32,000 bases of DNA from an uncultured archaeon (GTDB lineage Archaea > Iainarchaeota > Iainarchaeia > Iainarchaeales > Iainarchaeaceae). Position numbers and translations under genes: made by a program. Where the stretch lies: assembly GCA_964577555.1 (NCBI GenBank), contig CAZNZM010000004.1, positions 23,200 to 55,199 on the forward strand, given 5' to 3'. Below, one piece after another: positions 3,558 through 31,392 of this stretch; position 1 is the stretch's first letter, and the number at the start of each line of letters is the position of its first letter. The notes under the pieces were generated by a model. That model had not been told where the DNA came from and made no database searches. It was given only the letters and a program-made list of their open reading frames with translations.

Positions 3558-5333
3558 TCAAGACTCTTTTAAATTATCATAAACTGAAACCCTGATAGAA
3601 ATCTTAACAGAATTTGACACACCCTTGTCATTAGAAACAGTAAGAAAAACATTGTGGTCACCAACATCATTAACACTAAAAGTTTTGGAAAAAGTTTTGC
3701 CTTCAACAGGCTCAGAATCATCAACCCTCCAAACCCAAGAAACAATTTTATTGCCAAGAGGATCAAAAGAATTGCTCCAAAAATCGACATCAACATCATT
3801 GCTTTCAGAAGTTATTATTACCGGATTTAGCGGAGAAAAACCTATCAAAGCAACAGGCTTCAAAGACAAAGGAGAAACAGAAACAACATCATACGGCTCC
3901 TGTTTTTTATAAACCCAAATCTTAACCTCTCTTTGAGTCCCATCCTTCAACGGCAAAGTCTTATTCACAACATACCTTTCCGCATTATCCTTTTTTGTAC
4001 CAAACTCAAACTTCTTGCCAACAACAGCATCAATCGTTGAAATTATGCTCTCTTTCAACAACGAAATGTCACAACCACCTGAACTACAATCAATAATATT
4101 TCCCTTGCTTACTCCGTCACCGCCTGCAAGCAACGCCATATGCTCCTTTATCTTGTTAATAGTTTCAGGGTTTGAATGCAAACCGGAAGAAGGAAAAGAA
4201 ACACAATTAAGTTTGCCATTACAATCAACACAATCATTCGAAGTAACACAAAGATTGCCGACAGAATCGCAAATAGGCGGAGCTCCATTGCCTTTAGGAT
4301 CGGTAAAAATCGGAACAACTCTATAATCATAATTCTTAAGAACAGAAATAGCGTGATTCACAAAAACAAGAGAACGATTGCCATTACTCAAATTACAAGT
4401 TTTATAATAAACCCTAACGTTACTGCCAGTTTCTTGATAACTATAAGGAGTATCAGACTCAGAACCAGAACTCAATTCATCAGAAGCCGGAAATATAAAA
4501 GTCACGGTTGGAAACTCCGACTCCATCCTTGCCTCTGGAACTTCCTTGGCAACATAAGCCGAAGCAGTAGCCCAATCCTCGTAAAACTCTCCTTTAAGAA
4601 TGTTCATATCTGGACTGCAATTAGACATGCAACAAATACGGGCTGGAAACTTGTCAACACCAACAAAATAAGGGCTTTGTGGGTTTTTAAGCGAATCCAC
4701 AAAATACTTATTATAAATACCAACCCCCAAAGAAGGACAAACATTGCCTGTGTTTGTCACAGGTATTTTATGGTCGGCTTCAATATAAGAACAATCAATA
4801 TCAATACTGGTACAATCAAACGAATTATTAGTATTGGTTTTTAGAATGAAAACTTTCTCTTCAAAAATAAAATCCCCCTTGGTGCGAAAAAAAGACTTTA
4901 TGTCAGGGATTATAACATTCAATTTGTCAATATCGTCACGCATGCTGTCAGAACCATCGACAATGAAATAAAGCCTTATTTTCATTTTAGGCGGAATAAT
5001 CTCCATATAATAATTTTCTTTCCCATAAATAGAGTCAAATATTTTTTCAACAATCTCCTTTCTATTAACATTTTGCCCATAATAATTGAAATCATAAGAC
5101 CATGAATATATCATGTCACCCATCAACTGTGCAACACTCATCTTAATGGTTGGTTCTTCAATCTGCAAAATCTCTCCAAAATCTGCTGAAATACGATGCT
5201 GTTCAAAAGCAATCTTATTGCTTTCAAAAACCTTTACGGCTTGGTCAAGCTGATTGAATTGAATCAAAGCCCAACCAGAAAGAAGCATGACAACAATAAT
5301 TACTATTGCAATAATATCTGAAACCGCAGACAT
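3558..5333 (-). CDS. Helix-anchored vWA + PKD protein (modular pilin-like adhesin candidate)
   Basis: The N-terminus is MSAVSDIIAIVIIVVMLLSGWALIQF, a single hydrophobic helix. A MIDAS-like motif YFIVDGSDSM is the rc of 4941-4970. The C-terminal FWSNSFDPLGNKIVSWVWRVDD...GDHNVFLTVSNDKGVSNSVKISIRV fits the PKD consensus. I count 14 Cys. The ATG at 5333 abuts the upstream stop. Confidence 0.75.
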   Translation of the reverse strand: MSAVSDIIAIVIIVVMLLSGWALIQFNQLDQAVKVFESNKIAFEQHRISADFGEILQIEEPTIKMSVAQLMGDMIYSWSYDFNYYGQNVNRKEIVEKIFDSIYGKENYYMEIIPPKMKIRLYFIVDGSDSMRDDIDKLNVIIPDIKSFFRTKGDFIFEEKVFILKTNTNNSFDCTSIDIDCSYIEADHKIPVTNTGNVCPSLGVGIYNKYFVDSLKNPQSPYFVGVDKFPARICCMSNCSPDMNILKGEFYEDWATASAYVAKEVPEARMESEFPTVTFIFPASDELSSGSESDTPYSYQETGSNVRVYYKTCNLSNGNRSLVFVNHAISVLKNYDYRVVPIFTDPKGNGAPPICDSVGNLCVTSNDCVDCNGKLNCVSFPSSGLHSNPETINKIKEHMALLAGGDGVSKGNIIDCSSGGCDISLLKESIISTIDAVVGKKFEFGTKKDNAERYVVNKTLPLKDGTQREVKIWVYKKQEPYDVVSVSPLSLKPVALIGFSPLNPVIITSESNDVDVDFWSNSFDPLGNKIVSWVWRVDDSEPVEGKTFSKTFSVNDVGDHNVFLTVSNDKGVSNSVKISIRVSVYDNLKES

Positions 5334-5756
5334 TCAAACACCTTTAAAGCAAAAATAAACCCGGCCAAGGCATTTTTGCCCCTTACTATTAATAATATTC
5401 ACGACGTAAGAATATTTCCTTTCACAAGAATCATTATTGCCTATTGCCCAAGACTTTTCACTACAACCAAGAAAATTTTCCATTTTGACAACATAACCGG
5501 AAACAACAGGAGTAGTACAATTAGAATTAATGCCAAACCTATCAAACTTGTTTTCGTCAAAAGTGCCAATGCAACGAAAAACAAAATCCCTTACTTGCCC
5601 GCTTTCCTGAAGAGGCTTTATTGAAGGAGTAAGCTGATTTACCGGAACAATAGAAGAATAACCAATATAAACAAGAAACAAAACAACAAAAACAATTATG
5701 ACAACAAGCATAAAAGTTGAAATCATAGAATAAATGCCTCTACAATCCATTGACAT
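5334..5756 (-). CDS. Small pilin-like exported protein (N-terminal RG + hydrophobic helix, 6 Cys after the helix)
   Basis: The N-terminus is MSMDCRG-IYSMISTFMLVVIIVFVVLFLVYIGY. It has an ATG start and lies in the tightly packed pilin string. Confidence 0.6.
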   Translation of the reverse strand: MSMDCRGIYSMISTFMLVVIIVFVVLFLVYIGYSSIVPVNQLTPSIKPLQESGQVRDFVFRCIGTFDENKFDRFGINSNCTTPVVSGYVVKMENFLGCSEKSWAIGNNDSCERKYSYVVNIINSKGQKCLGRVYFCFKGV

Positions 5757-6168
5757 CTATTCTGCCCCCGTTTTTTCTGTTCACCAAAAGCTCGGTTACA
5801 TAAGCAAGGTTAATGCTCAAATTAGAATCTGTACTGCAAAGCAAGATTCTGCATTGCATTATCTCGCCTGAATCAAAACAAATATTATTATCCCTAACCA
5901 AAAACAAGCCTTTTTCAGTCAAAGGATTATACTTATACTTGAAATTATAAGAAGCACAAGCATCATTAATCAAAGTCTGCATTTTAGTAACATCATTCTG
6001 AACCCGCTCGGCTTCAGGCCTCAAATTCTTGAAATTACCCAAAAGCCACATAGAAGCAAGCAATATAGCAGTTATAACTGCCAACCACAAAACAACATCT
6101 GACACCAAACTAGCCTTTGAATTCAAATTCAAAACATTCAAATCAGGCTTTGCACTCAATTTTAACAC
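5740..6168 (-). CDS. Small pilin-like exported protein (4 Cys after the helix); start codon uncertain and non-ATG
   Basis: ...NSKA-SLVSDVVLWLAVITAILLASMWLL. There is no in-frame ATG before the TM helix. The track start at 6168 is GTG, and TTG at 6126 or 6132 would give a short MN(L)NSKA leader. The SLVSD motif resembles SAVSD of 3558..5333. Confidence 0.55.
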   Translation of the reverse strand: MLKLSAKPDLNVLNLNSKASLVSDVVLWLAVITAILLASMWLLGNFKNLRPEAERVQNDVTKMQTLINDACASYNFKYKYNPLTEKGLFLVRDNNICFDSGEIMQCRILLCSTDSNLSINLAYVTELLVNRKNGGRIDVNGL

Positions 6169-6601
6169 CGCCCTTAACCCTTAAAAAAGAACAAGTAAAA
6201 TCAGTTACTGAAAAAGCTTCCCTGTGAAAAGTAGTGTCAAGGTTCAAATCATAATCCTGCGGAGGACAAGAACATTTTACACAATTACTACTGCCTTGAA
6301 ACTCCATACAAATTTTACTGCCAGAAGACCTGGCAAAAACAACAGAACCGCTTGCAAGAGGAAACTTTTCAGACAACAAAGTGTCAACAGCAGAATTGCA
6401 AACAAATTCGCACTTCTGCCCCATTCTTGCAAGCGAATTTTTTATTTGCTGGAGTTTTTGTTGATCAGAACCGGTAGAAACCAAATTAGCCACTATTAAA
6501 AGCCCAAAAACAGCTGTTATTACGCCAACATAGAGCCAAACAGCCTGATCCACAAAATCTCCCCAAAATGAAAGCAAATATAGACATTCATGAACATTCA
6601 A
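6143..6601 (-). CDS. Small pilin-like exported protein (8 Cys after the helix); start codon uncertain and non-ATG
   Basis: ...DQAVWLYVGVITAVFGLLIVANLV helix. The track start at 6601 is TTG, and an in-frame GTG at 6553 would give M-DQAVW.... There is no ATG before the helix. Confidence 0.55.
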   Translation of the reverse strand: MNVHECLYLLSFWGDFVDQAVWLYVGVITAVFGLLIVANLVSTGSDQQKLQQIKNSLARMGQKCEFVCNSAVDTLLSEKFPLASGSVVFARSSGSKICMEFQGSSNCVKCSCPPQDYDLNLDTTFHREAFSVTDFTCSFLRVKGGVKIECKA

Positions 6602-7157
6602 TGTCTATTGCACCATCGCCATCGCTGTCAAATGCACTGGAAAACCAATGAAACTTTTTATCATCATCAGACAAACCAGCATAACACCCGCCAGGCTTGA
6701 TGAATTGCATCAAAAGCTCGGTGGCTTCCTCTCTTGACTTGCCTTCTCTTTTCCAATAATTGCAAAGAAGATCCTTGCACGAAGACATATTCAAATTGGA
6801 AGAGCCGCAAGAAGTCAAAAGAGAACAATAAACCTTGTCGTCACAAACACCAACCCCTGCCTTGAAGCCAGTATTATTATACGACGGAAGAGCCCCCTGC
6901 TTCAAACGAAAATCAAAAGATTTTATGCAAAACTGCGCCAAACTATCAGCATCTCCAGCAGCACACAACCTTGAACATTCAGTCTTGCCACTGGAAATCT
7001 TGTTTTCAAAAGCGGCTTTATCCTGCTCCTCCTGAATTTTAGTGCCCTGCTCCTTGAACTGCTGAGAAACAAGCTGCAAAACCAGCATTGCAACAGCCAA
7101 AAGAACAAAAAGCACAATGAATATTTGAATTGCCATTTCCATTCCTTTCTGATTCAT
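6588..7157 (-). CDS. Pilin-like exported protein with a class III-like signal (MNQKG-MEMAIQIFIVLFVLLAVAML), 10 Cys and a C-terminal DxDxDG loop
   Basis: It has an ATG start that forms an ATGA overlap with the upstream stop. The C-terminus is FDSDGDGAIDIECS. Confidence 0.65.
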   Translation of the reverse strand: MNQKGMEMAIQIFIVLFVLLAVAMLVLQLVSQQFKEQGTKIQEEQDKAAFENKISSGKTECSRLCAAGDADSLAQFCIKSFDFRLKQGALPSYNNTGFKAGVGVCDDKVYCSLLTSCGSSNLNMSSCKDLLCNYWKREGKSREEATELLMQFIKPGGCYAGLSDDDKKFHWFSSAFDSDGDGAIDIECS

Positions 7158-7564
7158 GTTTTTACCTCCACTTTACCTTTATCAACATTCCAATTTATAA
7201 AAAAAGTTTTTACGCTTGCTTTCTCAACATTGCCAAGCACGTTGACATCGCCAACCAAAGCAACCAAATTCTCAGGAACAATATTATACGGTTCGTTAGA
7301 ATGAACAGTAAAACAAATACCGCTATGCAAATTCACACCATAATTCTTATTATAACACTCTTTTATCAAAGCAACCACTTCCCTGTCCGAAACAGAAGTA
7401 ACATCAATAAGATCAGCTCCTGTTGGCGGCTTTTTATCCCCACCAAAAAAACCCAAAATAGAATTCTTTCCAGCACCTATAAGATCCTGACTGAAATTAA
7501 TTACAAGAGTGCCAACTACCAAAACTATGAACAAGGTTATTATCAATTGAACAGGCATCTCCAT
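7154..7564 (-). CDS. Small pilin-like exported protein (MEMPVQLIITLFIVLVVGTLV..., 2 Cys)
   Basis: The track start at 7576 is GTG immediately after a TGA. ATG at 7564 gives MEMPVQL..., paralogous to the MEMAIQI of the next gene. Confidence 0.6.
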   Translation of the reverse strand: MEMPVQLIITLFIVLVVGTLVINFSQDLIGAGKNSILGFFGGDKKPPTGADLIDVTSVSDREVVALIKECYNKNYGVNLHSGICFTVHSNEPYNIVPENLVALVGDVNVLGNVEKASVKTFFINWNVDKGKVEVKT

Positions 7565-7684
7565 AAAAAAAACCACTCAAAACAAGAATAAAACGATTTC
7601 AAAATATTTAAATTAAACGCTTAAAGAACTTTCCAAAAAAACAAACTTGTCCTATAAACAACAAAAAAATAATGACGATTAGGC

Positions 7685-7692
7685 AAAAAAAA
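7685..7692 (-). terminator. Oligo-T (T8 on minus strand) directly after the stop of 7693..8124
   Basis: An A8 run on the + strand abuts tca (TGA) at 7693-7695. It is followed by the only sizeable gap (116 nt) in locus A, which contains a TATA-like tttaaatatt (~7603-7617). Confidence 0.45.
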
Positions 7693-8124
7693 TCAAGTTA
7701 TTTTCAACGCATGATTCCCGTTTTCATTGCAAGAAATATTTAAAATCCTTGGCAAAACAAGCGGCGGATTGTCAATCAAAATGCGACAATCAGTACAATA
7801 ATTCATTTTTCTAAAAAAATTATTCAATTTAGCTTCGTCGAGCTCCCCAATTTTGTTGCCATCAAAAGACTCGTCAAGAAGAACAACATTGCCGCAATCC
7901 TTATAAACTTCGCCAAACTGGCACTCTTGCCAACAATAATTAAGCTTTGCCGCAAACTTTGGAAAATTAACTTTGGTTAGGCTTGGTCCGTTGGCAGGAG
8001 GAATAAACATGTTCCTTACAGTATCACCAATCTTGTTAAAATCAAATTGAAAAACAAAAGCGGTTATCAAACCAGCAACTATAATAGTGAAAAAAAGAAA
8101 ACCAACAATTTCAATTGTTTCCAT
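7693..8124 (-). CDS. Pilin-like protein beginning directly with METIEIVGFLFFTIIVAGLITAFVF (E at position 5, no leader); 6 Cys; candidate major subunit
   Basis: It has an ATG start and one N-terminal hydrophobic helix. It is the last gene before the T8 tract. Confidence 0.6.
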   Translation of the reverse strand: METIEIVGFLFFTIIVAGLITAFVFQFDFNKIGDTVRNMFIPPANGPSLTKVNFPKFAAKLNYCWQECQFGEVYKDCGNVVLLDESFDGNKIGELDEAKLNNFFRKMNYCTDCRILIDNPPLVLPRILNISCNENGNHALKIT

Positions 8125-8128
8125 AACA

Positions 8129-8206
8129 TCACTTCAACATGCTTGTAACATACAATATAATCGCTCCAAAAGCTATTACTGCAATAATAACTTCAATCAC
8201 AACCAT
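8129..8206 (-). CDS. 25-aa single-helix peptide MVVIEVIIAVIAFGAIILYVTSMLK (pilin alpha1-like, E5), below the track cutoff
   Basis: Hand translated. The ATG is at 8206, 11 nt after the platform gene stop. The TGA at 8129-8131 lies 4 nt before the next ATG. The call is speculative because the ORF is so short. Confidence 0.35.
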   Translation of the reverse strand: MVVIEVIIAVIAFGAIILYVTSMLK

Positions 8207-8217
8207 TATTGTTTGAT

Positions 8218-10086
8218 TCACCTGACAAGCACCCCTTTGAAAATAATTTCAGTGAAAGCATAATAACCGCCAAACAACAAAGCACTATAAATCAAAAAAG
8301 AAATGGCAAGATTCTCGTAAATGGTTTTTGCAATTTTATATTTGTCCGTGCCATCCCTTATATTTGAAAGAAAAAGAGAAAGTATAATAGAAGTTTCAAT
8401 AAAATACGCGCCAACAATTATCTCAAGAATAGTAGGAGGAATTATGTCTTTTATCTTCACAAGCTCAAGATTAATAGGATTACTTCCAACACTTGTCAAT
8501 ACTTCATTAATCTTCTGCTTAATGAATTCAAGAGACATGACAATAGCAGCAGCCATTACAGTAGCAGTGGTTGCCAACAAAGGAGCCAACACCGTGACGG
8601 AAATACTTACAATAGAAACCGTTTCAGCCAAAAGAGTTTGAATATAATCATCCAACTTGTAAGTTGAAAGAGTCTGCTCCCTTATCATCTTGGCTGATTT
8701 GGCCGCGCTTTTCTGGTCAATCTCGGTAAAAATAACTATCCTCTTAATAATTTGAACCATGCGCCTTGAAGGTGCAACAGAAGGCAAAAACTTTTCAACC
8801 AAATCACCAAGAGACTTTTTGGTATTATAAAGAGCCTCTTCCAATGAAGAAATTATTTTAACAGTAGGATGCTGGCCAAAACCATGGCGTTGATAATCAT
8901 TCACAACATCCTTAAGAATACTCTCCATTGACCTGTTCAAAGAAAGATAACTTGCAAACATCTGCAAAAGGTGAGGCAAATCCCTTTCAGTCTCGTTCAT
9001 TTCAAGCCAAAGCCTTTCATTCCTCTTAGCATAAAAAAAGCAAAAAAGTTCAAAACAAAGAAAAAGACCAAAAAGCCCAAGCCAAATTTTTAAAATAGAA
9101 TCAAGAGCATACTCCCTTGCAATGCCTGAAGGAGTCTCAAGATTAATAGTAGTAATATGAAAAGCAGGAATAATCAAAGCAACCAAGCCAAGACCAACAA
9201 ACACTACATACCACCATTTAGGAATCTCTTTGAAACGAGGGCTTGTTGACAAATCAATAGTATTCACTTGAATCCTATTAGTTGCAAAATTCATGGCCAT
9301 GAAAAGCAAAAGAGTTGGAAAAAAAACCACGTAAAGAAAAATAAGCAAAGGCACATTAGCCAATTGAGGCATAAAAATTGTTATCAAAGGAAGCAAAATC
9401 AAAGACATCATTGGAATCATAACGCCGACAGAAATCAGAGTCTTGGTTTGATTTGAAAGTTTTTCAGTGAAACGCTTGCCAGCATCATAATAACTCAAAA
9501 TAACAGTTTCAATAACTTCATTAATAATAGCCTCCCTTTCAGTCTGCTGGGCAATTGCAGCAGTCTGAAGAAGATTAAGACCTTTAACAAACTCCGGATT
9601 AACCTGCAACCAAATTGGAATATAATACTCAAAAGCTTCACCAATAGTTTTATACTCTTTGGCTTCTATCTTCTCACGTATAGTCCTAAACTGCTTTCCA
9701 AGAGTACCGCCAAGACTTTCGGAAACATTCACAACAGCAGCTTCAACACTCGTATTAAGAAGAATATAATTCGACATTTCAAGTAAAGCCTGAAGCATTT
9801 CCTCCCTAAAAGCAACGATCCGCTGAGTATAATTAATGCTCAAAGCCCACAAAAAAGCCCCGGAAGCAATAATCAAAGCGCCAAAACCAAAAAGATAACT
9901 AAGCAACTGAATAGGAGTTGCAACAACAGCCAAAAACATTAAACCAAAAAAATAAATTACAATGCCAGAAGCAACTTCCTGAGAATTATAAGGAAATTCT
10001 ACCAACCTAAGCTTGTCTTCCCAACTCTGAATCCTTGATACAACCGGAAAACGCCTGCCAACCTCGTATACAAAATCAAAATACAT
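8218..10086 (-). CDS. Polytopic membrane platform protein, divergent PilC/ArlJ(FlaJ)/TadC-like with two T2SS-F-like repeats
   Basis: It is 622 aa with multiple TM segments and two helical cytoplasmic segments with T2SS-F-like patterning (…LGKQFRTIREKIEAKEYKTIGEAFEY… and …LPHLLQMFASYLSLNRSMESILKDVV…). It sits directly downstream of the ATPase. Confidence 0.65.
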   Translation of the reverse strand: MYFDFVYEVGRRFPVVSRIQSWEDKLRLVEFPYNSQEVASGIVIYFFGLMFLAVVATPIQLLSYLFGFGALIIASGAFLWALSINYTQRIVAFREEMLQALLEMSNYILLNTSVEAAVVNVSESLGGTLGKQFRTIREKIEAKEYKTIGEAFEYYIPIWLQVNPEFVKGLNLLQTAAIAQQTEREAIINEVIETVILSYYDAGKRFTEKLSNQTKTLISVGVMIPMMSLILLPLITIFMPQLANVPLLIFLYVVFFPTLLLFMAMNFATNRIQVNTIDLSTSPRFKEIPKWWYVVFVGLGLVALIIPAFHITTINLETPSGIAREYALDSILKIWLGLFGLFLCFELFCFFYAKRNERLWLEMNETERDLPHLLQMFASYLSLNRSMESILKDVVNDYQRHGFGQHPTVKIISSLEEALYNTKKSLGDLVEKFLPSVAPSRRMVQIIKRIVIFTEIDQKSAAKSAKMIREQTLSTYKLDDYIQTLLAETVSIVSISVTVLAPLLATTATVMAAAIVMSLEFIKQKINEVLTSVGSNPINLELVKIKDIIPPTILEIIVGAYFIETSIILSLFLSNIRDGTDKYKIAKTIYENLAISFLIYSALLFGGYYAFTEIIFKGVLVR

Positions 10087-10102
10087 TCCATTACTACCCC
10101 TT

Positions 10103-11770
10103 TCAATTTTTAGCCATCTCCATTACCCTTTCAGTAAACTGCTTTTTGAACTCATCCTCATTAGCTTTGCCCTGCAAAGGCTTAATCTTCTCAAAAAGAT
10201 CAACATACAAAGTATTAGCCTTCAAAACAAATTCAGCTTCAAGCTTTTGAGGCACTTCTGACATTATGTCAAAATACTTTTGCTTGGCCCAAGCCCTAAG
10301 CATAATATCAGCCAAAGCCGCATTATAATCCTTATAACCTTGGGTATGCTCAATTATTTCATTTATCACAACCGACTTGCCCTTCATAAAAACATCAGTA
10401 GGCACAAGAGTATCGCGTTTAGGATCATAAACCATCAAATCCTGGAAAACAGGTTCATCTTCCCAATCCTTAAGAACTTCAGTAACGGAAACAACACGCC
10501 TAACCCTATGCAAACCAGTAACAGTCTTTATCTGCTTCACCATTATAATCAAATCAGTAACCTTGAAAGAACCTTTTGGCACGCCAAGATCATTAACAAT
10601 CCTGTCATAAACACCATAAGGATTATCAGCATGAATTGTGCCGGCAACAGTCATGGACATGGCGCCAACCCTCATAGCCTCATACAAAACCTTCGCCTCT
10701 TTAGACCTGACTTCACCAAGAATAAGACAAGAATCACCAAGCCTCAAAGAAGTCCTCAAACCATGATCAAACGGAATTTCAAGACCCTCTTCCATCAAAG
10801 CAGACCTTACCTTAAGAGAAAGCAAATCATAACCAAACCTCTTATAATGATCAACAGGCAACTCCTGAGTATCTTCAATAGTAATAATCCTATACTTCTG
10901 CAAAATCTCAGTAATGGTTGCACCAAGCACAGAAGTCTTTCCAGACCCTCTTGGCCCTGCCACCAAAAAAGTCCTGCCATGAGCAATCACAAAAGACATA
11001 AAACCAGCAAACAAAGAATTCAAAGTATTATTCTTCATAAAAAGAGGCAAAGTCCAAGGACTCTCACGATGCTTCCTAATACTATACCCAATCCCATGAA
11101 CAGAAAACGGCGGAACAACAGCCTCAACCCTTGTCCTCACATTCTCAACATACAATTCGCCATCCAATTGAGGCTGAGCCTTGTTCAAAGGCCTGCCAGA
11201 CTCAATCTTCAAATAAGTAGCAAGATAATTCAAAAAATCAATAGAAGGATAAATGTTAGTCATGCACTCTTCAAACTCGTCATGAATCACAATCATAGGA
11301 GTCTGAAACTCTGGAGGATTAATATTAACCTCCTGAATATGAGGATCGCTCAACAAATAATCAAGAATGCCGTGCTTCTTAATCCAAATATTAAGCAACT
11401 GATCGGAAAAATCACGCCTCTCAAACTTTTCCCTAAGTTCCTTCAACTCCTCATACTTCTTGTCCAAACCAGGAATCTTAATAACATAAGCAATTCTAAG
11501 CTTGTCCTCAACATCAATTATGTCAACAGTAGCATCCTTTATATCATAACTCTTCAAAACCTTGCCTTCAAGAGGCTGTATCAACACATCAACAAAAAAA
11601 GGATAAACAACAAAATTCTTCTCCTGCAAATACTGCTGCTTCGTAAAAAGCTTGTTCTTATAAATCAAAATATCCAAATCAGGAGTTGGCTTGACACACG
11701 CATTGCACTGTGGAAAAGCAATATCATTCAAACCATCACAATTCTCACAATCCCTTATCTTATACTTCAT
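10103..11770 (-). CDS. Type II/IV secretion-family ATPase (ArlI/PilB/VirB11-like), divergent, with an N-terminal CxxC-x10-CxxC zinc ribbon
   Basis: Motifs: Walker A FLVAGPRGSGKTS, IITIEDTQELP, Walker B-like CLILGEVRSKEA, and His-box AGTIHADNP. The track start at 11830 is TTG; ATG at 11770 gives MKYKIRDCENCDGLNDIAFPQCNAC. Confidence 0.85.
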   Translation of the reverse strand: MKYKIRDCENCDGLNDIAFPQCNACVKPTPDLDILIYKNKLFTKQQYLQEKNFVVYPFFVDVLIQPLEGKVLKSYDIKDATVDIIDVEDKLRIAYVIKIPGLDKKYEELKELREKFERRDFSDQLLNIWIKKHGILDYLLSDPHIQEVNINPPEFQTPMIVIHDEFEECMTNIYPSIDFLNYLATYLKIESGRPLNKAQPQLDGELYVENVRTRVEAVVPPFSVHGIGYSIRKHRESPWTLPLFMKNNTLNSLFAGFMSFVIAHGRTFLVAGPRGSGKTSVLGATITEILQKYRIITIEDTQELPVDHYKRFGYDLLSLKVRSALMEEGLEIPFDHGLRTSLRLGDSCLILGEVRSKEAKVLYEAMRVGAMSMTVAGTIHADNPYGVYDRIVNDLGVPKGSFKVTDLIIMVKQIKTVTGLHRVRRVVSVTEVLKDWEDEPVFQDLMVYDPKRDTLVPTDVFMKGKSVVINEIIEHTQGYKDYNAALADIMLRAWAKQKYFDIMSEVPQKLEAEFVLKANTLYVDLFEKIKPLQGKANEDEFKKQFTERVMEMAKN

Positions 11771-12311
11771 GAGCCCCACCAACCACACTCTTATCAAACT
11801 TATAACCCGCACGCTCCATAACAGTTTCAATATTATTTATCCTCTTTCCCAACATGCCAACCATTTCAACAAGATTAAGATAAACATTCTTCACACGATA
11901 AGAAGAAACCGCACCATACATCTTCTCAATATCCGCAATCTTAACCATAATCTCCTTAGAACCGTCAGAAATGCCCGCCAAACCATCAGAATCATTCTCC
12001 ATAGAAATAAGACTACGCTCAATATCATCCAACCTTGTTTTGACAAGATCAAGCTTTGCATTAAAAATAACAAAACGCTCATTCAACCTCTCAACCTTTT
12101 CAATACCTTTTTTAGAAAGAGCCTCAGGATTAGCCTTTTCCAACATTTTAATAATCCGCTCAATTTTCATATAAATAAGATTTATTTGTGTGTCAAGAAA
12201 CCTCAACGCTTCAAGAGTCTCCAAATTAGCATCCTTCAAAACAACAAATTGATCAGTATTAACGTCATACGTCTTCCCAAACTGCTTCTGTTCAAAAACC
12301 TCTCGGGACAT
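11760..12311 (-). CDS. Helical/coiled-coil protein of unknown function, co-oriented with the locus A ATPase
   Basis: It has an ATG start and overlaps the ATPase start by 11 nt. The sequence is heptad-like and rich in E, K, L and I. I recognised no motif. Confidence 0.5.
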   Translation of the reverse strand: MSREVFEQKQFGKTYDVNTDQFVVLKDANLETLEALRFLDTQINLIYMKIERIIKMLEKANPEALSKKGIEKVERLNERFVIFNAKLDLVKTRLDDIERSLISMENDSDGLAGISDGSKEIMVKIADIEKMYGAVSSYRVKNVYLNLVEMVGMLGKRINNIETVMERAGYKFDKSVVGGAHEV

Positions 12312-12320
12312 AAAACCAAA

Positions 12321-12989
12321 TCAGCCCCCGAAAATTTTCTTGAGAGAACCAAAAAAATTATCAAAAAAACCAACTTTAACCTCTTCAGGCTTCTTAGGCT
12401 GAACCTGCTCCTTAGACTCCTCTTGGCTTGAAACAACCTTTTGATCCTGCCCAGAAGTAACCTGAATAGCCAATTGCTCCTCAATATACTTTATCCTCTT
12501 CTCAAGAGTCTCCATCACATTAATAAGAGCCATAAAAGTATCCTTGGTCTCGGAAACAGAAAGACCCTGATAAAGCTCTTCAAGAGAAACAACCTTGTTA
12601 TAAAGACTGTCAAATTGATTCTTGCTTATCTTGGTCTGCAAAATCTCCTTAAGCTCGTCATCCCTTTCCTTCAATTCATTAGTCTTCTGAAGAAAAATAT
12701 TCAACTTTGATTCGGCAGAAGCAAGATTCTGCTCCAAATTATTAAGTTTTTGAATAACATCAGTAGCCTCAGTCAAAGGAACCCCAACAGAAACAGTATT
12801 CTCAAGCTGATCAATCTTAGAACTCAACTCCCCAATACTCGCAAGCAAATAATTCTGCTTCTCTTTCAACTTTGGATCCTTGACATTCGCCGGAAAAATA
12901 GAATTCATTGTTGAAGCAACCTGATTCACAGAATCTTTAAGTTCTTGAGTTTCATTAGCCACAAAAACCACACCCAAAAAACATACCAA
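12321..12989 (-). CDS. Coiled-coil protein of unknown function (first gene of locus A); start uncertain
   Basis: The track start at 12989 is TTG. The TATA-like box at 13010-13017 would put the TSS at ~12987, so GTG at 12962 (M-ANETQELK...) or ATG at 12908 are alternatives. It has long heptad-like stretches and ends GFFDNFFGSLKKIFGG. Confidence 0.5.
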   Translation of the reverse strand: MVCFLGVVFVANETQELKDSVNQVASTMNSIFPANVKDPKLKEKQNYLLASIGELSSKIDQLENTVSVGVPLTEATDVIQKLNNLEQNLASAESKLNIFLQKTNELKERDDELKEILQTKISKNQFDSLYNKVVSLEELYQGLSVSETKDTFMALINVMETLEKRIKYIEEQLAIQVTSGQDQKVVSSQEESKEQVQPKKPEEVKVGFFDNFFGSLKKIFGG

Positions 12990-13009
12990 AAAAATAAAAG
13001 AACAATCAC

Positions 13010-13017
13010 ATATAAAT
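13010..13017 (-). promoter_or_regulatory. TATA box (ATTTATAT on minus strand) for the locus A operon
   Basis: It lies in the 194-nt divergent spacer, ~24 nt upstream of the longest-ORF start. Confidence 0.4.
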
Positions 13018-13150
13018 GGATTACTATAAAACCAATTCTACACAAAATATCGGATTTAGTAATAATTCAAAGCCAACTATTCAGCACAAACCCCAAACAA
13101 CAAATAAATTAATATTTCAACCTATTTTTACAAAAAAAACACTAGTGAAC

Positions 13151-13160
13151 ATTAAAATAG
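13151..13160 (+). promoter_or_regulatory. TATA-like box (attaaaatag) for 13184..15241
   Basis: It is centred ~29 nt upstream of the ATG at 13184. Confidence 0.35.
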
Positions 13161-13183
13161 TAGTATGAATTTTATAAATAAAG

Positions 13184-15241
13184 ATGATTCAAGTTAACAG
13201 CAAAGGAAACGCAATAGCAATAGTGCTTGCAGCAGTAGTAATCACGACAATAGTTGTAGTAACATTACAAAACACTCCTCCAATAAATATAAACAATCAA
13301 CAAAACTCAACAGAAAAACTAATGAGCGAATTTGAAAATTCAATAGAAAAAGGCTTCAAAAATTCAACATACAAAATAATGAAAAACGGATTCTCCACAG
13401 ACGACCCAATATGGTTTTACAACAAACCAACCATGCCAAGCTTAAAAGAATTTGACAAAAACTTCACAGACTTAACCAAAAAAGAAATAGAAGAACTGCT
13501 AAAAGAACTCAAAAACAAGACAGGATACGAATACGACCCAGCAAGCCTAAAAGTAGAACTAAAAACCAACATTGACAAAACAAAAAAACCAATTGAACAA
13601 ATAAAAGCCCTGCCAGAAGACAAACCATTGGATTTGGAAATAAACGTGCTGGCAACAGTAAAAGAAGGAGACCAAGAAAAACAAATACAATACACCAAAA
13701 CAAAAAAAATCCCAGCAAATACTATAAAAACATACAAAAAACTTGCAGAATGGATGGAAACAGACATGAAACACTTTGAAATAGAAACGGCAAGCGCAAT
13801 GGACGAAGCAGGATACTGCCAAGTAGCACTATGCGATTGCACAAGCGACCCAGAACCAAGAGATGAAGAAGGCAATTTGTTGAAAATGATAGACGAGAAA
13901 TTCATCAAAGGAAATTACAACACAGAAAACATAAAACCAAAATACGAAAAAATGCTGCAAACAAAAATAGACAAATTAAACCAAAAACTTACAGGGACAG
14001 GCATAACTTGTACATATGAAATAGAAAAATGGGAAACAAGCACAGACGAATACAGAGAACAACAATGCGTGGAACCAAAATCCGATGAATCATTGCAAAG
14101 GCACTGCAAAGAACCAGGCGGAAGATGGCAAAACATAAGAATAAGCGAAACACTTGACAAAATAACAGTAGAAGAACTATACAATAATGAAACAACCAAA
14201 AGAGAACCTAATCAAAACCCACAACAAAAAGACTATGACACAAAATACATTTACTATGAATGGCAAGAAATGAAAGAAAAAGACACTGTGCCAAAAAGAG
14301 AAAAAACAATGGAAAGCAACAACATAATAGGAGAAAAAAGAGAAACAAACCCAAAAATAGAACTAAAAGACTGCGGAAAAGAAAAAAAACATAAAGACGA
14401 ACTAGTTGCACTAAACCCAAAACTATACGCAAAAGTAGCAATCAAATGCAACGAACCGCAAGAATTGATAGGAACAAGCAAAAAAGAAGAAACAGCAACA
14501 ACAATAATAAAAATTGTCACAGCACTTGAAAAAACCTGCCAACCAAAACCGCTTAAACCAAACCCGCCTCTCTCGGCAGAACCAACAAAATGCCTCGGAG
14601 CAAATTCAGCACCAATAATTGAATGCGAAGAAGACATTGACTGCATACCAGAAGAACTAAGAGATCCAAAAATTACAGGAAGCTCAAAAGGAGGAATCTG
14701 CACAAAATTCTGGTGCGAAAAAGACGCACAAAAAATACAAGAAATCATGGAAAGAAACAACAACCTAACCAAAGAACAATACAATAATATAATAAAAAAC
14801 AATAAAGGAGTTTGCAAACAAGAATACGTTGGAATTGATTTAAAACAATGCCCGGGGATAAACAAATGCAACAAAGCAACATGCTCATACATAGATGAAA
14901 GTGGAAACCTTTATCCAAACGGAAGATGCAAATTAGAACCTGTTTTATGCCAAGGAAACAGCACATCAATAAACACATGCGGAGCACCATTAAAATGCGA
15001 CGAAAGCAAAGGATGCATACCCGACACATCAAACACAAACTCATACCTTAATTGCACTGAAAACAAAGAATTATACAAAGGCAGCTGCATAACACCTTCA
15101 TGCGTATGCGACACAAAAGAATGTACAAGATACAAATGCATATCAACCGCAAAAAACGATTTATGCCCTCCAACTAATGAAGGCATATCACAATACTGCA
15201 ACCCAATAAACGGGCTTTGCGAAAGAACAATATACTCATGA
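13184..15241 (+). CDS. 685-aa pilin-like (class III signal-like N-terminus) secreted protein with a cysteine-rich C-terminal half
   Basis: The N-terminus is MIQVNSKG-NAIAIVLAAVVITTIVVVTLQ. I count 32 Cys, 18 of them in the last ~150 aa (CxxxC and CxC spacings). It is K/E/N/T-rich and is transcribed divergently from locus A. Confidence 0.65.
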   Translation: MIQVNSKGNAIAIVLAAVVITTIVVVTLQNTPPININNQQNSTEKLMSEFENSIEKGFKNSTYKIMKNGFSTDDPIWFYNKPTMPSLKEFDKNFTDLTKKEIEELLKELKNKTGYEYDPASLKVELKTNIDKTKKPIEQIKALPEDKPLDLEINVLATVKEGDQEKQIQYTKTKKIPANTIKTYKKLAEWMETDMKHFEIETASAMDEAGYCQVALCDCTSDPEPRDEEGNLLKMIDEKFIKGNYNTENIKPKYEKMLQTKIDKLNQKLTGTGITCTYEIEKWETSTDEYREQQCVEPKSDESLQRHCKEPGGRWQNIRISETLDKITVEELYNNETTKREPNQNPQQKDYDTKYIYYEWQEMKEKDTVPKREKTMESNNIIGEKRETNPKIELKDCGKEKKHKDELVALNPKLYAKVAIKCNEPQELIGTSKKEETATTIIKIVTALEKTCQPKPLKPNPPLSAEPTKCLGANSAPIIECEEDIDCIPEELRDPKITGSSKGGICTKFWCEKDAQKIQEIMERNNNLTKEQYNNIIKNNKGVCKQEYVGIDLKQCPGINKCNKATCSYIDESGNLYPNGRCKLEPVLCQGNSTSINTCGAPLKCDESKGCIPDTSNTNSYLNCTENKELYKGSCITPSCVCDTKECTRYKCISTAKNDLCPPTNEGISQYCNPINGLCERTIYS

Positions 15242-18073: not shown

Positions 18074-19621
18074 ATGGAAGAAAACAAACCAATAAAAGAA
18101 ACAATTCAGAGAATCGCCTTTGAATTAAGAGAAAGCGGAGCAACAGAATGGGAAGTTCTAAAAATAATAAAAGAACTTGAAAACATTACTACATCGGAAA
18201 CACAATACAGAAAACGCGCAGCAGAATTGCTTGAAAAACTCAACCCCGAAGCAGCCAGAACATTCAAATCATTCGAAAAAATGAAAGTATACACTTCGGC
18301 TGAAAAAAGAGAAGCATTTGACAGAGGCAACATAATAAAATCACTACTCAAAGAAACAAGCCTTAGCAGGCACATAGCGGAAAAAATAGGAGCTGAAGTA
18401 GAAGACAAAATAAAAGACATGAAAATAGAACAACTCAACACACAAATAATAAGAGAAATGGTAAGCACAAAACTCCTAGAATACGGACACGAAGTGGGGC
18501 ACAGAGAATACTCAAGAATAGGACTACCAGTCTTTGAAGTAAAGAAAAAACTTGAACAAGGGTTTTTTGAAAACAAAGAAATACTCAAAGAATTTAATTG
18601 GCTTTTCAAAATACCTCTAAAAACAAAACAACTTCACTTCGACTCAATAATAAACATACATTACCCAGAAGATTTTTCAACAAAAATTTTTGCAACAGCA
18701 AAACACCTCAAAGGAGAAAGAGAAGACATACTACTGGCAACCATAGAAGCGGACAAATACATCAGCACACCATTGACAATAACAGCAATAAACTACTCAA
18801 GAGCCGAAAACATAAAAACAGAAAAAAAAGCACAAGAAGAAGCACAAGCGCTAGAAAAAATATTCACGGCAACAGGCAAAAAACGAAACGCACAAATCGC
18901 ATTATTCACAGACTACGAATGGGAAAAATCCGGAACAAAAACCGGAGCAATGCTTCTGGCAAAAGCATTAATGGAAAAAACTGACTCAAAAGCACTTGAA
19001 ACTTCAATCGCAATAGATACAAAATACAAACTAAAACTACTGCCAAAAAGAAAAGAAAACATAAACATACTCAACTATTCAAAAGAAAAAACAACAAAAT
19101 TCGGAAAAATAACAATATGCGGAAACACAAACACAATACTGCAAACAACATCAATCAACACACCAAAAATAATCGAAATTTCAAGCAAAGAAGAATTCTG
19201 GAAAAAACTTGAAGAAATACTGCAAGAAATAAAAGAAATGTGCGAAACAAAAAGAAAAGAACTGGAAAAAAGAAACTACATAGACAAAAAAACATTAGAA
19301 CAAGCCGAAAACGTAATAGCACTTGCAGGACTAAACCAAACAGCAACACAAATAGAACAAAACCATGCAAAAACAATAGAACAAATAATAACAACAGTCC
19401 AAAAACACGGCTTCATAGCATGCTCATCCCCTCCAGAAGACAGTTTGCAACGCTTCGGCATCGAAGAAAAAGAAAACGAATTACAAAAAAAACTACTACA
19501 AATGACACAAAAAACCAGAAAAACATTCGGCCACACTTACATAGCAGAAAACACAAAAGAAGCTGAAACAATACTAAACGACTGCCCAAGCGTCACAATC
19601 CGAAAGACCGATACGGTTTAA
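18074..19621 (+). CDS. ATP-cone domain protein; the remainder is weakly reminiscent of the NrdD N-terminal region but has no glycyl-radical motif
   Basis: The ATP-cone is MKVYTSAEKREAFDRGNIIKSLLKETSLSRHIAEKIGAEVEDKIKDMKIEQLNTQIIREMVSTKLLEYG. DSIINIHYPEDFS loosely recalls the GDIHYHDLDYS of NrdD. I see no RVCGY-type C-terminus. Confidence 0.55.
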   Translation: MEENKPIKETIQRIAFELRESGATEWEVLKIIKELENITTSETQYRKRAAELLEKLNPEAARTFKSFEKMKVYTSAEKREAFDRGNIIKSLLKETSLSRHIAEKIGAEVEDKIKDMKIEQLNTQIIREMVSTKLLEYGHEVGHREYSRIGLPVFEVKKKLEQGFFENKEILKEFNWLFKIPLKTKQLHFDSIINIHYPEDFSTKIFATAKHLKGEREDILLATIEADKYISTPLTITAINYSRAENIKTEKKAQEEAQALEKIFTATGKKRNAQIALFTDYEWEKSGTKTGAMLLAKALMEKTDSKALETSIAIDTKYKLKLLPKRKENINILNYSKEKTTKFGKITICGNTNTILQTTSINTPKIIEISSKEEFWKKLEEILQEIKEMCETKRKELEKRNYIDKKTLEQAENVIALAGLNQTATQIEQNHAKTIEQIITTVQKHGFIACSSPPEDSLQRFGIEEKENELQKKLLQMTQKTRKTFGHTYIAENTKEAETILNDCPSVTIRKTDTV

Positions 19622-20348
19622 TAATCTCGAACTTGGACATATACAATTCAGTCTTAAGAGATTCAAAAAACGGAACAACAACAACCAAAGCAACAACAAG
19701 AGAAACAAAACCACCAACGCCAAAAGCCAAGTCAATCAAAAACTCCAACAACTGCAACAAAGTGACAGCCAAAAAACCTGAAACAAAAGCAATAACAAAT
19801 GCAAAAGGGTTTTTTAGCATAAATTCAAAAGACGACAAAACCGAGGACAACAAACCTTCCTCATCAACCACTATAGCCTGCCCAAGAAAAAGAAAAGGCA
19901 AAGAAACAAAAAAAAGCAACAAATTAACAACCAAAGGCGAAACCCCAAAATCAATAAGAAGAGAAGAAACCACCGCAGCCAAAACAACAAAAATCGCCAA
20001 AAATTGAAAATACTTCAACCCGAATTTCGACACCTTCTCGCTCAAATAATAATGCAACTTAACCTTGTTAAAATCAGCCCTAACAGCAAAAATCATCAAA
20101 CAAACCAAAACAGAATAAAAAAACAAAAACACCAAAGCCAACAAAAGCAAAAAAACAGCATCAACCAACGGTTTTTTCAAAAAACCATAATCAATCATGA
20201 CAGTTCCTGAAGAAACAACCACGTTTGAAAGCCAAGAAAACGGCAATACAAAAAAAAGCAAAAGACTGAAAGAGGCCGCAGTAGTAATATTATTCTTATA
20301 ATCCTCTAACGCTTCAAGAAAAACCATAAAAACCACAAAAAAAATCAT
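19593..20348 (-). CDS. Polytopic membrane protein of unknown function
   Basis: It has an ATG start and about 6 hydrophobic segments. I recognised no catalytic motif. Its 3' end overlaps the convergent 18074..19621 by 29 nt. Confidence 0.5.
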   Translation of the reverse strand: MIFFVVFMVFLEALEDYKNNITTAASFSLLLFFVLPFSWLSNVVVSSGTVMIDYGFLKKPLVDAVFLLLLALVFLFFYSVLVCLMIFAVRADFNKVKLHYYLSEKVSKFGLKYFQFLAIFVVLAAVVSSLLIDFGVSPLVVNLLLFFVSLPFLFLGQAIVVDEEGLLSSVLSSFEFMLKNPFAFVIAFVSGFLAVTLLQLLEFLIDLAFGVGGFVSLVVALVVVVPFFESLKTELYMSKFEIIKPYRSFGL

Positions 20349-27337: not shown

Positions 27338-29077
27338 ATGCCAAACTACATGGACGAACTATTCGAAAAAATAAAAGCAAAAAACCAGCCAAAACAAGAC
27401 AAAGAACAAAAAAACAAGGAAACACAAGAAACCACGCCAAAACAACCACAAGAAGAGCAAAAAACAAAAATTACAATTGAAATACCATACACCAACACAA
27501 AAAAAGAAAACCAAGAAAAACAAAACCCAAGCATTGAAAACCAAAAAACACAACCAAGCCAAAACACTAACGAACCAAAAAACTACGAAGAAGACGAAGA
27601 AAACACAATATCAGAAACAGAAAAAAAAATGGACAAAGCAGAAAAAGAACTTATAGAATCAAACCAATACGGAAAAATATTCAAAATACAAGGACAAGAA
27701 ATGCTATACTACCATTCGCCAGTGACAAGACCAACAGGCGGAGAAAGAGCAATAATAAACACCATAAAAGAAGCCGCAACAAGAATAATCACAATAGTGC
27801 CATACAAAATAAGAGACCCAGAACAAAGACGAAACGTATACTTCCAAAAAATAATAGAAATACTCAGAGAATCCCCAGAACTAAGAATACCATCAAACAA
27901 AATAGAATTCTACGCAGAAGCAGTAGTCAGAGAAATGATAGGATACGGAATAATAGACACACTCATCAAAGACCCAATGCTGGAAGAAATAATGGTAATA
28001 GCCCCAAAAACACCAGTATTCGTATTCCACAGAAAATACGGCATGATGCTCACAAACATAGAATTCTATTCGGACAACGAAATACAAGACCTCATAAACA
28101 GAATGGCAAGAACAATAGGAAGAAGAGTAGACATTGCAAGCCCGCTACTTGACGCAAGACTCCTAGACGGAAGCCGCGTAAACGCCACAATACCGCCAGC
28201 CTCAGTAGAAGGCTCAACACTCACAATCAGAAAATTCAGACCAGACCCATACACCATAATAGACCTAATAAACTACAACACAATAAATTCAGAAGCAGCA
28301 GCTTTCCTATGGTTGGCAGTAGAAGGAATGAGAGCAAGACCAGCAAACATACTCATATCAGGAGGCACAGGCTCGGGAAAAACAACACTTCTAAACGTAC
28401 TAGCCGCATTCATACCAGACGCAGAAAGAGTAATATCAATTGAAGACACAGCAGAACTAAAACTCCCGCTAAAACACTGGGTAAGACTAGAAGCAAAACC
28501 ACCAGGATTGGAAGGCACAGGAGAAATAACAATGGACATACTAACAAAAAACGCACTCAGAATGAGGCCGGACAGAATAATAGTAGGCGAAATAAGACAC
28601 GCAGAAGCCTTTGCACTATTCACAGCAATGAACACAGGACACGCGGGAAGCATGGGAACAGTACACGCAAACTCGCCACAAGAAACAATAGTAAGAGTAA
28701 CAAACCCGCCAATGAACGTGCCAGAAGTAATGATGGCAGGACTAAACTTCATAATAATAGAACACAGACTACACGACAAAAAACTCGGCACAATAAGAAG
28801 AATAACAGAAATAGCAGAAGTAACAGGATCACTCGAAGGAAAAACCAAAACAGAACCAATATACCGAAGAGAAGCAGCAACAGATTCTTTAATAAGAACA
28901 AAAGCCCCAATACAATTCTTAAAACAAATAGAAGAAGGAACCGGCTTGACACAAGACCGAATAATGAAAGAACTCAAAGCAAGACAAGAATTCCTAGAAA
29001 ACCTTGCAGAAAAGAAAATAACAAGACTAGAAGACGTGTCAGAAGCAACTGCAAAATTCCTGTTGGAAGAGAGATAA
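27338..29077 (+). CDS. Type II/IV secretion-family ATPase (ArlI/TadA/PilB-like) with a ~97-aa low-complexity K/Q/E/N/T N-terminal extension
   Basis: Motifs: Walker A ILISGGTGSGKTTLLN, VISIEDTAELKLP, Walker B RIIVGEIRHAEA, and His-box GTVHANSP. An alternative start is ATG at 27629 (MDKAEKEL...). Confidence 0.9.
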   Translation: MPNYMDELFEKIKAKNQPKQDKEQKNKETQETTPKQPQEEQKTKITIEIPYTNTKKENQEKQNPSIENQKTQPSQNTNEPKNYEEDEENTISETEKKMDKAEKELIESNQYGKIFKIQGQEMLYYHSPVTRPTGGERAIINTIKEAATRIITIVPYKIRDPEQRRNVYFQKIIEILRESPELRIPSNKIEFYAEAVVREMIGYGIIDTLIKDPMLEEIMVIAPKTPVFVFHRKYGMMLTNIEFYSDNEIQDLINRMARTIGRRVDIASPLLDARLLDGSRVNATIPPASVEGSTLTIRKFRPDPYTIIDLINYNTINSEAAAFLWLAVEGMRARPANILISGGTGSGKTTLLNVLAAFIPDAERVISIEDTAELKLPLKHWVRLEAKPPGLEGTGEITMDILTKNALRMRPDRIIVGEIRHAEAFALFTAMNTGHAGSMGTVHANSPQETIVRVTNPPMNVPEVMMAGLNFIIIEHRLHDKKLGTIRRITEIAEVTGSLEGKTKTEPIYRREAATDSLIRTKAPIQFLKQIEEGTGLTQDRIMKELKARQEFLENLAEKKITRLEDVSEATAKFLLEER

Positions 29078-29079
29078 AA

Positions 29080-30219: not shown

Positions 30220-30223
30220 AAAC

Positions 30224-31320: not shown

Positions 31321-31392
31321 GGAGTTTGACTAACTTATACGTAACAAAAATTATTCATTTTAAAAAAGAAAAAAATGGAGGATGATAAAAAA

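Follow-up and report, generated by a model that had tools for sequence, protein, structure and literature searches.

A divergent DPANN gene cluster predicted to encode a type IV filament machine, probably an adhesive pilus, in an uncultured Iainarchaeales archaeon

We analysed a 32,000-nucleotide (nt) stretch of contig CAZNZM010000004.1 (assembly GCA_964577555.1, positions 23,200 to 55,199, forward strand) from an uncultured archaeon of the Iainarchaeales, referred to as the window in the rest of the text. A string of open reading frames (ORFs) on the minus strand at 3558-12989 and a divergent plus-strand gene at 13184-15241 that is part of the same set make up what we call locus A. The predicted gene products make it probable that this DPANN locus specifies a type IV filament (TFF) machine, which is most likely a thin adhesive pilus. 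We read it as a divergent variant, spread across the lineage, of an archaeal type IV pilus class that has already been catalogued, and not as a new kind of machine. The minus-strand string reads as described in a first-pass annotation made from the sequence, with all of the listed ORFs present, and the proposal of that annotation that it is a type IV filament cluster is borne out by its contents, since a secretion ATPase, a platform protein and pilin-like proteins are all there. In full, the locus codes for two helical proteins, the ATPase, the platform, a 30-amino acid (aa) peptide, and six small and two large proteins that begin with a hydrophobic helix. Its features are as follows, in order of transcription from each side of the divergent region (TM, transmembrane; bp, base pairs).

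12321-12989, minus strand: cc1, a helical protein of about 216-222 aa, start uncertain, with a C-terminal amphipathic FFDNFFGSLKKIFGG tail.
11760-12311, minus strand: cc2, a 183-aa helical protein, with an 11-nt overlap between its stop and the start of the ATPase.
10103-11770, minus strand: secretion ATPase, 555 aa, from Pfam T2SSE and a structure model.
8218-10086, minus strand: platform protein, 622 aa, with at least 8 TM segments and two T2SS-F-like halves.
8129-8221, minus strand: micro-protein, a 30-aa single helix (MNQTIMVVIEVIIAVIAFGAIILYVTSMLK) with a GTG start that overlaps the platform stop.
7693-8124, minus strand: p1, 143 aa, pilin-like and leaderless, with a METIEI N-terminus and Glu at position 5.
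7565-7692, minus strand: p1-p2 break, the only sizeable intergenic gap in the string.
7154-7564, minus strand: p2, 136 aa, pilin-like and leaderless, with a MEMPVQL N-terminus.
6588-7157, minus strand: p3, 189 aa, with a class III signal (MNQKG, cut, MEMAIQIFIVLFVLLAVA) and 10 Cys.
6143-6553, minus strand: p4, 136 aa, pilin-like and leaderless, with a GTG start, (M)DQAVWLY and 8 Cys.
5740-6168, minus strand: p5, 142 aa, with a class III signal (..NSKA, cut, SLVSDVVLWLAV).
5334-5756, minus strand: p6, 140 aa, with a class III signal (MSMDCRG, cut, IYSMISTF).
3558-5333, minus strand: 'big', a modular 591-aa protein with a leaderless helix (MSAVSDII), a probable vWA core (D126-G-S128) and a C-terminal PKD domain.
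12990-13183: divergent intergenic region of 194 bp, AT-rich, between cc1 and the 685-aa gene, containing TTTATATG.
13184-15241, plus strand: div685, 685 aa, with a class III signal (MIQVNSKG, cut, NAIAIVLAAVV) and 32 Cys.

The ATPase translation holds the three motifs picked out in the first-pass annotation, GPRGSGKTS, LILGEVR and GTIHADNP, and has Walker A, Walker B and the His box; where a zinc ribbon had been reported, its N-terminus carries CxxC pairs. From this CxxC..CxxC ribbon (C8-x2-C11...C22-x2-C25; CxxC-x(5-30)-CxxC in 56 of 95 homologues) the protein continues through an N-terminal domain and a RecA-like C-terminal domain to a C-terminal helical extension, and by its motifs it is predicted to be catalytically complete. 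Pfam matched it to T2SSE (5e-19), and its nearest solved relatives by sequence in the PDB are Archaeoglobus afGspE (1e-24) and Sulfolobus FlaI (3e-22), to which phmmer gave about 80-90 bits. An AlphaFold2 model based on 95 homologues reached a predicted local distance difference test score (pLDDT) of 89 and was matched by Foldseek to FlaI (E 5.5e-31) and afGspE (template modelling score 0.67), with CpaF weaker. Scores for specific subfamilies fell far below their cut-offs: the NCBIfam FlaI equivalog NF058587, whose cut-off is 550 bits, gave 120.6 bits (the other ATPase in the window reached 286), the model for the 'TadA family conjugal transfer-associated ATPase' gave 120 bits against 373, and the BasE model gave 90.5 bits against 1000. 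The two ATPases of the window share 28% identity (136 bits by BLASTP). The locus A enzyme is thus a divergent member of the superfamily, far from ArlI/FlaI, in agreement with the distance from ArlI and ArlJ first noticed in its motifs.

An exact copy of this ATPase is already public, and its family numbers more than 6000 homologues, mostly from DPANN archaea, with relatives encoded in at least 585 GTDB species genomes. Labels on the close homologues include Diapherotrites, Micrarchaeota, Woesearchaeota, Altiarchaeota and Nanoarchaeota, and some public annotations name such homologues 'FlaI'.

Identification of the platform relied on iterated profile searches, as Pfam returned no T2SSF match for it, only a sub-threshold Spore_III_AB, and its profile found no match among PDB sequences. 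A second pilus locus in the window (locus B, see below) has two T2SSF proteins that Pfam does recognise. Seeded with one or the other of them, jackhmmer recruited all 64 platforms of the locus A type, the one of the window and 63 relatives, which made their first appearance in round 2 with E values of about 1e-9 to 1e-28. The same search divides the window platform into two repeats, about 5-271 and 267-620, in line with the two T2SS-F-like repeats first proposed, and comparison with platform 2 of locus B by hhalign gave 85%. On these profile matches, the locus A platform is predicted to be a GspF/PilC/TadC/ArlJ-family protein in which two T2SS-F-like repeats are fused. As a side observation, the Pfam T2SSF model may miss this platform clade, given that it matched neither of the two members tested directly (the window and a Haloterrigena relative described below) and matched only four of 41 DPANN platform relatives, weakly.

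The micro-protein encoded directly after the platform has homologues that keep this position in the related loci L005, L006, L010, L011 and L018, and in L058 it is internal to a longer ORF; it stays after the platform in most loci carrying the full set. These homologues begin M-[NSQ]-[QKR]-T, usually MN[QKR]T, which creates an N-x-T sequon. The small helix peptide of the first-pass annotation is therefore present, although its 25-aa ATG version is too short for orthologues starting MN[QKR]T and the 30-aa GTG version fits.

Iterated searches through 82 related loci, 80 of them from GTDB species and two from metagenome contigs, defined the helix-first families, one per downstream gene. A signal scan found class III signals, with [KR]-[GA] in front of a hydrophobic helix, in p3, p5, p6 and div685, and the motif is conserved in their orthologues, while p1, p2, p4 and 'big' are leaderless. 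Around the predicted cut, p3 reads KKG, cut, TEKPIEIFVALFVILAVA in most genomes (MNQKG, cut, MEMAIQIF in the window), the p5 family [KR]-[GA], cut, ..[IV][IVL]W, the p6 family [KR]G, cut, [IVF]Y..[IL][ST][ST]F and the div685 family SKG, cut, NAIAIV. Among the leaderless families, p2 begins ME[ML]P[IV], with MEMPI or MELPI in nine of ten ORFs from other loci and as the first residues in eight of them; p4 begins M[ED][QE].[IV]W and 'big' MS[AV]..[DN][IV]. The leaderless starts coincide with the mature register of the signal-bearing proteins, as seen when MEMPVQL of p2 is set against MEMAIQI of mature p3, or SAVSDII of 'big' against SLVSDVV of mature p5. The six small proteins thus each have the helix attributed to them at the outset, but p2 and p4, at 136 aa each by orthologue starts, fall outside the reported range of 140-190 aa.

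Cysteine counts in the p1-p6 ectodomains are mostly even, conserved within each family and range from 2 to 12, which fits extracellular disulfides. Comparison of the globular parts of the eight families by hhalign found no mutual relationship (best 11.5%, p4 with p5), indicating that they are not recent paralogues. The p3 helix stands out by its mean pairwise identity of 77%, compared to 22-50% in the other families. This most conserved helix, the class III signal and a position downstream of a candidate internal promoter make p3 the candidate major pilin. The C-terminus of p3 in the window carries an Asp-rich DSDGDGAID loop whose EF-hand matches are sub-threshold (E about 0.1), and two p3 orthologues have Asp/Gly-rich inserts at other places; the loop is possibly a calcium site on the candidate major pilin.

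The two large proteins have features of adhesins. The first-pass annotation had described 'big' as a vWA and PKD protein. Its PKD domain is well founded (Pfam PKD_4, 1.6e-6; PKD domain of ColH in the PDB, 9e-8), and a vWA core upstream of it is probable. PKD, Ig-like and carbohydrate-binding C-terminal matches aside, the PDB profile matches of 'big' are to integrin vWA domains only (E 0.04-0.8), and these align from the first strand of the vWA fold; D126-G-S128 is invariant or nearly so among orthologues, and Pfam VWA_4 or VWA was found in three of 24 orthologues (E 0.003-0.009). An AlphaFold2 model from a four-sequence alignment (pLDDT 44) is confident in the PKD domain only and shows alternating strands and helices upstream. 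About 24 true orthologues of 'big' were recovered, the profile search of representatives being otherwise dominated by multi-PKD proteins. They swap the C-terminal module among PKD, LamG, Big_9, Sde0182_C and a metalloprotease, an exchange typical of adhesins. For div685, neither Pfam nor NCBIfam contained a matching family. Its homologues directly adjoin 'big' in L004, L005, L006, L018 and L058, amounting to four distinct loci besides that of the window, which confirms the earlier placement of this divergently encoded protein in the set; div685 belongs to the locus A system and is its second pilin-like adhesin.

All eight helix-first families recur, in most cases together with the micro-protein, in 12 GTDB species loci whose labels are Woesearchaeota or unclassified archaea. 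These 12 loci come from a sub-branch in which the match of the ATPase to the query starts at the N-terminal end and the full accessory set is present wherever the flank suffices, with the exception of L017. The families travel as three blocks, (micro, p1), (p2, p3, p4) and (p5, p6, big, div685). Gene order is identical to that of the window in L005-L007 and also in L010 and L011, where p1 is triplicated, and the blocks are shuffled elsewhere. Conservation of gene order in related genomes had been suggested as a check in the first-pass annotation, and the order is kept in relatives. Since the gene set recurs in distant genomes, the arrangement is not due to chance.

A broader Woesearchaeota/Pacearchaeota sister branch (L060, L073, L046, L045, L079 and L032) has a longer ATPase (about 760 aa) and platform (about 720 aa). 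In L073 and L046, runs of genes for class III signal proteins from other families come next, and the other four loci have none adjacent, suggesting that their pilins are encoded in trans or that the motor has been repurposed.

The ORFs of locus A are tightly packed. The statement that all overlaps or gaps measure 12 nt or less except for one 116-nt break held for most junctions: the gap is 9 nt between cc1 and cc2, the overlap is 11 nt between cc2 and the ATPase gene, the platform and micro-protein ORFs overlap by 4 nt (GTGA), a 4-nt gap precedes p1, p2 and p3 overlap by 4 nt, and p6 and 'big' are separated by 0 nt. It did not hold for the 16-nt gap between ATPase and platform or, once starts were corrected, for p3 and p4, which lie 34 nt apart; the p1-p2 break itself grows from 116 to 128 nt when measured from the orthologue-supported ATG. 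Comparison with orthologues placed the p2 start at ATG 7564 and the p4 start at GTG 6553, with GGGGAG in front. For p1, the ME codon is the earliest possible start in the window and orthologues read ME[TVA][IV]E[IL]. The 140-aa form of p6 agrees with its orthologues, and a public 130-aa call cuts off the signal motif. Within the 7565-7692 break, T-runs precede a TTTAAATA box that lies about 40-50 nt ahead of the p2 ATG, a pattern that would fit a block boundary with its own promoter. We regard this segment as a candidate terminator plus internal promoter. The divergent intergenic region at 12990-13183 is likewise a candidate bidirectional promoter region.

Upstream of the ATPase gene, no TM segment was found in cc1, whose Pfam matches are sub-threshold only and of coiled-coil type, and cc2 matched no Pfam family. 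A single cc1 homologue lies in the equivalent position in the related locus L004, and cc2 homologues sit upstream of the ATPase in L004 and L008. The locus DNA is 100% identical to the window on three public contigs from three samples, among the matches listed. In the public gene calls for two of the contigs (L001/L002), one has four antisense ORFs replacing the intact 685-aa gene. We rejected a loss of the 685-aa gene from that contig as a gene-calling artefact, the ORF being intact and the DNA 100% identical.

Locus A is surrounded by housekeeping genes (topoisomerase, Lrp/AsnC, NFACT, RFC and ThrRS), and no PHROG matches to viral families were found. Locus B, at 27338-31779 on the plus strand, encodes a 579-aa ATPase (T2SSE, 2.8e-44), two separate T2SSF platforms (379 aa and 317 aa), and a pilin of 134 aa that has the Pfam Class_IIIsignal domain (PF04021; KG, cut, QGALEYLL). 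It is a canonical System-1/Epd-like type IV filament locus and may extend beyond the end of the window. At 19593-20348 on the minus strand lies a gene for a 251-aa multi-TM protein with no Pfam family, adjoining one whose 515-aa product has a weak ATP-cone domain (18074-19621); having no GxGD motif, the 251-aa protein is not an obvious prepilin peptidase. Over the whole window (1-32000), every 1-kb bin has a negative GC skew and a positive AT skew regardless of gene strand, and the cumulative GC skew falls monotonically. It may follow that a single replication arm contains the entire window, or that the genome is strongly biased in composition independently of strand.

Several observations weigh against assigning locus A to an adhesive pilus. 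When 66 pilin-like sequences (the p1-p6 set and orthologues) were compared to Pfam, they matched no pilin family and indeed no family at all. Half of the pilin-like families are leaderless, which is unusual in filament subunits, and helix conservation only underlies the choice of p3 as major pilin. The vWA domain of 'big' is significant by no single test. Finally, no prepilin peptidase was found in the 32-kb window, nor by a crude motif scan in the fetched flanks, so that the first-pass annotation was right in reporting neither this enzyme nor archaellum accessory genes in the window.

Some of these observations would also suit a short pseudopilus, of the type II secretion system (T2SS)-like or competence/DNA-uptake kind, in which the many minor-pilin-like proteins would build a piston or short fibre. 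Its task in a nutrient-dependent cell would be to carry substrates, for instance DNA or proteins, through the envelope. The eight different pilin-like families include no tandem-duplicated or obviously dominant major pilin gene, and the four leaderless ones could stay membrane-anchored. As locus B already provides a Class_IIIsignal pilin in the same window, the two systems may divide labour, and DNA exchange by type IV pili has been suggested for the DPANN archaeon Mia14 (PMC5498576). However, locus A contains no gene for a secretion substrate, a DNA-binding protein or a DNA channel, the set invariably includes two large modular proteins that carry adhesion-type domains, and the highly conserved p3 helix fits a polymerising subunit. 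We consequently regard a pseudopilus as unlikely.

A mobile element, or a conjugation-type DNA transfer system with a VirB11/TadA-like ATPase, would account for the match to the TadA conjugal-transfer model and for the closest non-DPANN relative lying on a haloarchaeal plasmid beside ParA and helicase genes. Against this, the score of 120 bits is far under the 373-bit cut-off of that model, and genes for VirB4, a coupling protein, a relaxase or an integrase are missing from the window. Housekeeping genes surround the locus, no PHROG family matched, the locus is identical on the three contigs mentioned above, and neither flanking repeats nor attachment (att) sites with presence/absence polymorphism among close strains were found. 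Contradicted by the model score, the neighbours and the lack of viral family matches, this explanation is very improbable. An archaellum, that is, a rotary swimming motor, deserves hardly any credence: FlaI is the best structural match of the ATPase and lends its name to some homologues, but afGspE, a non-archaellum ATPase, matches equally well, the FlaI equivalog score contradicts the assignment, the platform has no ArlJ model match, unlike the locus B platforms, and the components are missing, with no archaellin, ArlF/G, ArlH, ArlC/D/E or ArlX matched by Pfam or NCBIfam among the locus proteins and the 66 pilin-like sequences.

If locus A does encode an adhesive pilus, a hexameric ATPase would drive the platform, which would pull helix-anchored subunits from the membrane into the filament stack. 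In such a machine p3 would polymerise as the major subunit, and p5, p6, 'big' and div685, which form one block, could constitute a priming or tip complex presenting the adhesins. The leaderless p1, p2 and p4 would need no prepilin peptidase and could either enter the filament unprocessed or stay membrane-bound as assembly or stator-like parts; the peptidase acting on the four signal-bearing proteins would be encoded elsewhere in the genome. The micro-protein, translationally coupled to the platform, may be a platform-bound subunit, and cc1 and cc2 could act as a cytoplasmic scaffold or regulator on the ATPase. We also put forward, tentatively and with appreciable doubt, a more complete proposal: that locus A represents a distinct DPANN filament branch, sister to haloarchaeal subclade 4F and outside current subsystem models, which would combine eight unrelated families, half of them peptidase-dependent and half leaderless and 'ready-cleaved', with a coupled N-x-T micro-protein and two swappable adhesins, in a host-attachment organelle of episymbiotic Iainarchaeia- or Woesearchaeales-type cells.

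A life attached to host cells is assumed for DPANN archaea. Cryo-electron microscopy of ultrasmall cells has revealed pili-like connections (PMC7906910), and a role of the predicted locus A pilus in host attachment would fit both its domain content and these published images. The genes behind such DPANN connections are mostly annotated as 'hypothetical', and locus A offers a parts list conserved across lineages, in which the candidate major pilin, the two modular adhesins, the leaderless pilin-like proteins and the micro-protein are useful new details. These parts could be used in searches of proteomes, in predictions of host range from adhesin modules and in TFF detection models. Detection models matter because Pfam T2SSF fails on both platforms tested directly. 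Locus A would also supply the cognate pilins for an ATPase clade for which the 2016 census (PMC4858521) had none in 'nanoarchaea'.

Regarding known systems, the proposed presentation of an adhesin on a type IV filament by minor pilins and a large vWA-type protein recalls bacterial modular-pilin and tip arrangements of the TadG, PilY1 and PilB-PilC type. Adhesin arrangements of this sort involve PilY1 with the minor pilins in type IVa pili, and PilB and PilC in Streptococcus sanguinis. TadG is a vWA component of Tad pili (cited in PMC4858521). Those systems differ from locus A, with no detectable sequence relationship, and the locus A adhesins carry their own pilin-type helix, which in one of them is leaderless. 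The Epd/System 1 locus of Methanococcus maripaludis, which makes a non-archaellum adhesion pilus, shares with locus A an ATPase, a platform and several class III signal proteins. Its two platform genes and DUF361/Class_IIIsignal pilins fit locus B and not locus A, which was excluded from this class by its one fused platform and by having no PF04021 match. A bindosome (4I) was likewise rejected for locus A, given the BasE score reported above and a locus with no binding-protein domains.

Among DPANN archaea, Candidatus Mancarchaeum acidiphilum Mia14 is described as having two different pilus loci, no archaellum and one peptidase encoded away from the pilus loci, to which LamG proteins are linked (PMC5498576). 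Similarly, the window has two different pilus loci and one 'big' orthologue carries LamG. Pilus islands of the DPANN 'dark matter' with unrecognisable small signal-bearing proteins were noted in 2019 (Makarova, Wolf and Koonin, PMC6393860). These islands resemble locus A in having an ATPase and a TadC-like gene followed by signal-bearing small proteins that were read as divergent pilins.

The closest counterpart of locus A appears to be subclade 4F, exemplified by Haloarcula hispanica, which also has an ATPase, then a single large multi-TM TadC-type platform of ~600 aa and then several small pilin families in a string. The 2016 census (Makarova, Koonin and Albers, PMC4858521) lists a Cys-rich N-terminal domain of the ATPase and a cytoplasmic coiled-coil component among 4F traits, and reports a 4F-clade ATPase in 'nanoarchaea' with pilins that were not identifiable. 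The first of these traits is matched by the CxxC..CxxC ribbon at residues 8-25 of the locus A ATPase, and cc1 and cc2 hold a place analogous to that of the coiled-coil component. Reference components of 4F are the ATPase arCOG01818, the TadC protein arCOG01814 (about 9 TM segments) and the coiled-coil/Asp-rich arCOG07564. The major pilin of 4F belongs to the PilA family (arCOG02981/arCOG10216), whereas p1-p6 of locus A and their orthologues match no Pfam pilin family, and none of the eight pilin-like families matches a Pfam family in use for haloarchaeal pilins. An adhesin-like protein is part of the 4F component list in a 2026 preprint by Sivabalasarma and Albers. The micro-protein, the vWA/PKD protein and the Cys-rich 685-aa protein of locus A are absent from the published 4F list as far as it was consulted.

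The closest non-DPANN relative that we found, by tblastn in a plasmid collection, is at 8715-12980 of the Haloterrigena turkmenica plasmid pHTUR04 (L086), where the order DUF7311, ATPase, platform equals the gene order of the 4F example and ParA and helicase genes lie nearby. Its ATPase shares 36% identity with that of locus A at 209 bits, compared to 136 bits for the locus B ATPase (BLASTP) and about 80-90 bits for FlaI and afGspE (phmmer), and its 604-aa platform, which has no Pfam match and was taken as arCOG01814 from gene order only, is a full-length homologue of the locus A platform (hhalign 99.8%, E 2e-30, 537 columns). The DUF7311 neighbour is a leaderless protein with an N-terminal helix and not a coiled coil; the cc proteins have no similarity to the Haloterrigena neighbours, and the cc2 profile no relationship to the DUF7382 protein among them. 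With more than 6000 ATPase homologues, DPANN islands noted in 2019 and a 4F-like layout in this closest non-DPANN relative, the first-pass statement that the cluster could not be matched to a described pilus type was overstated. From its layout and its nearest haloarchaeal homologue, rather than from arCOG profiles, we infer that locus A is a DPANN relative of 4F.

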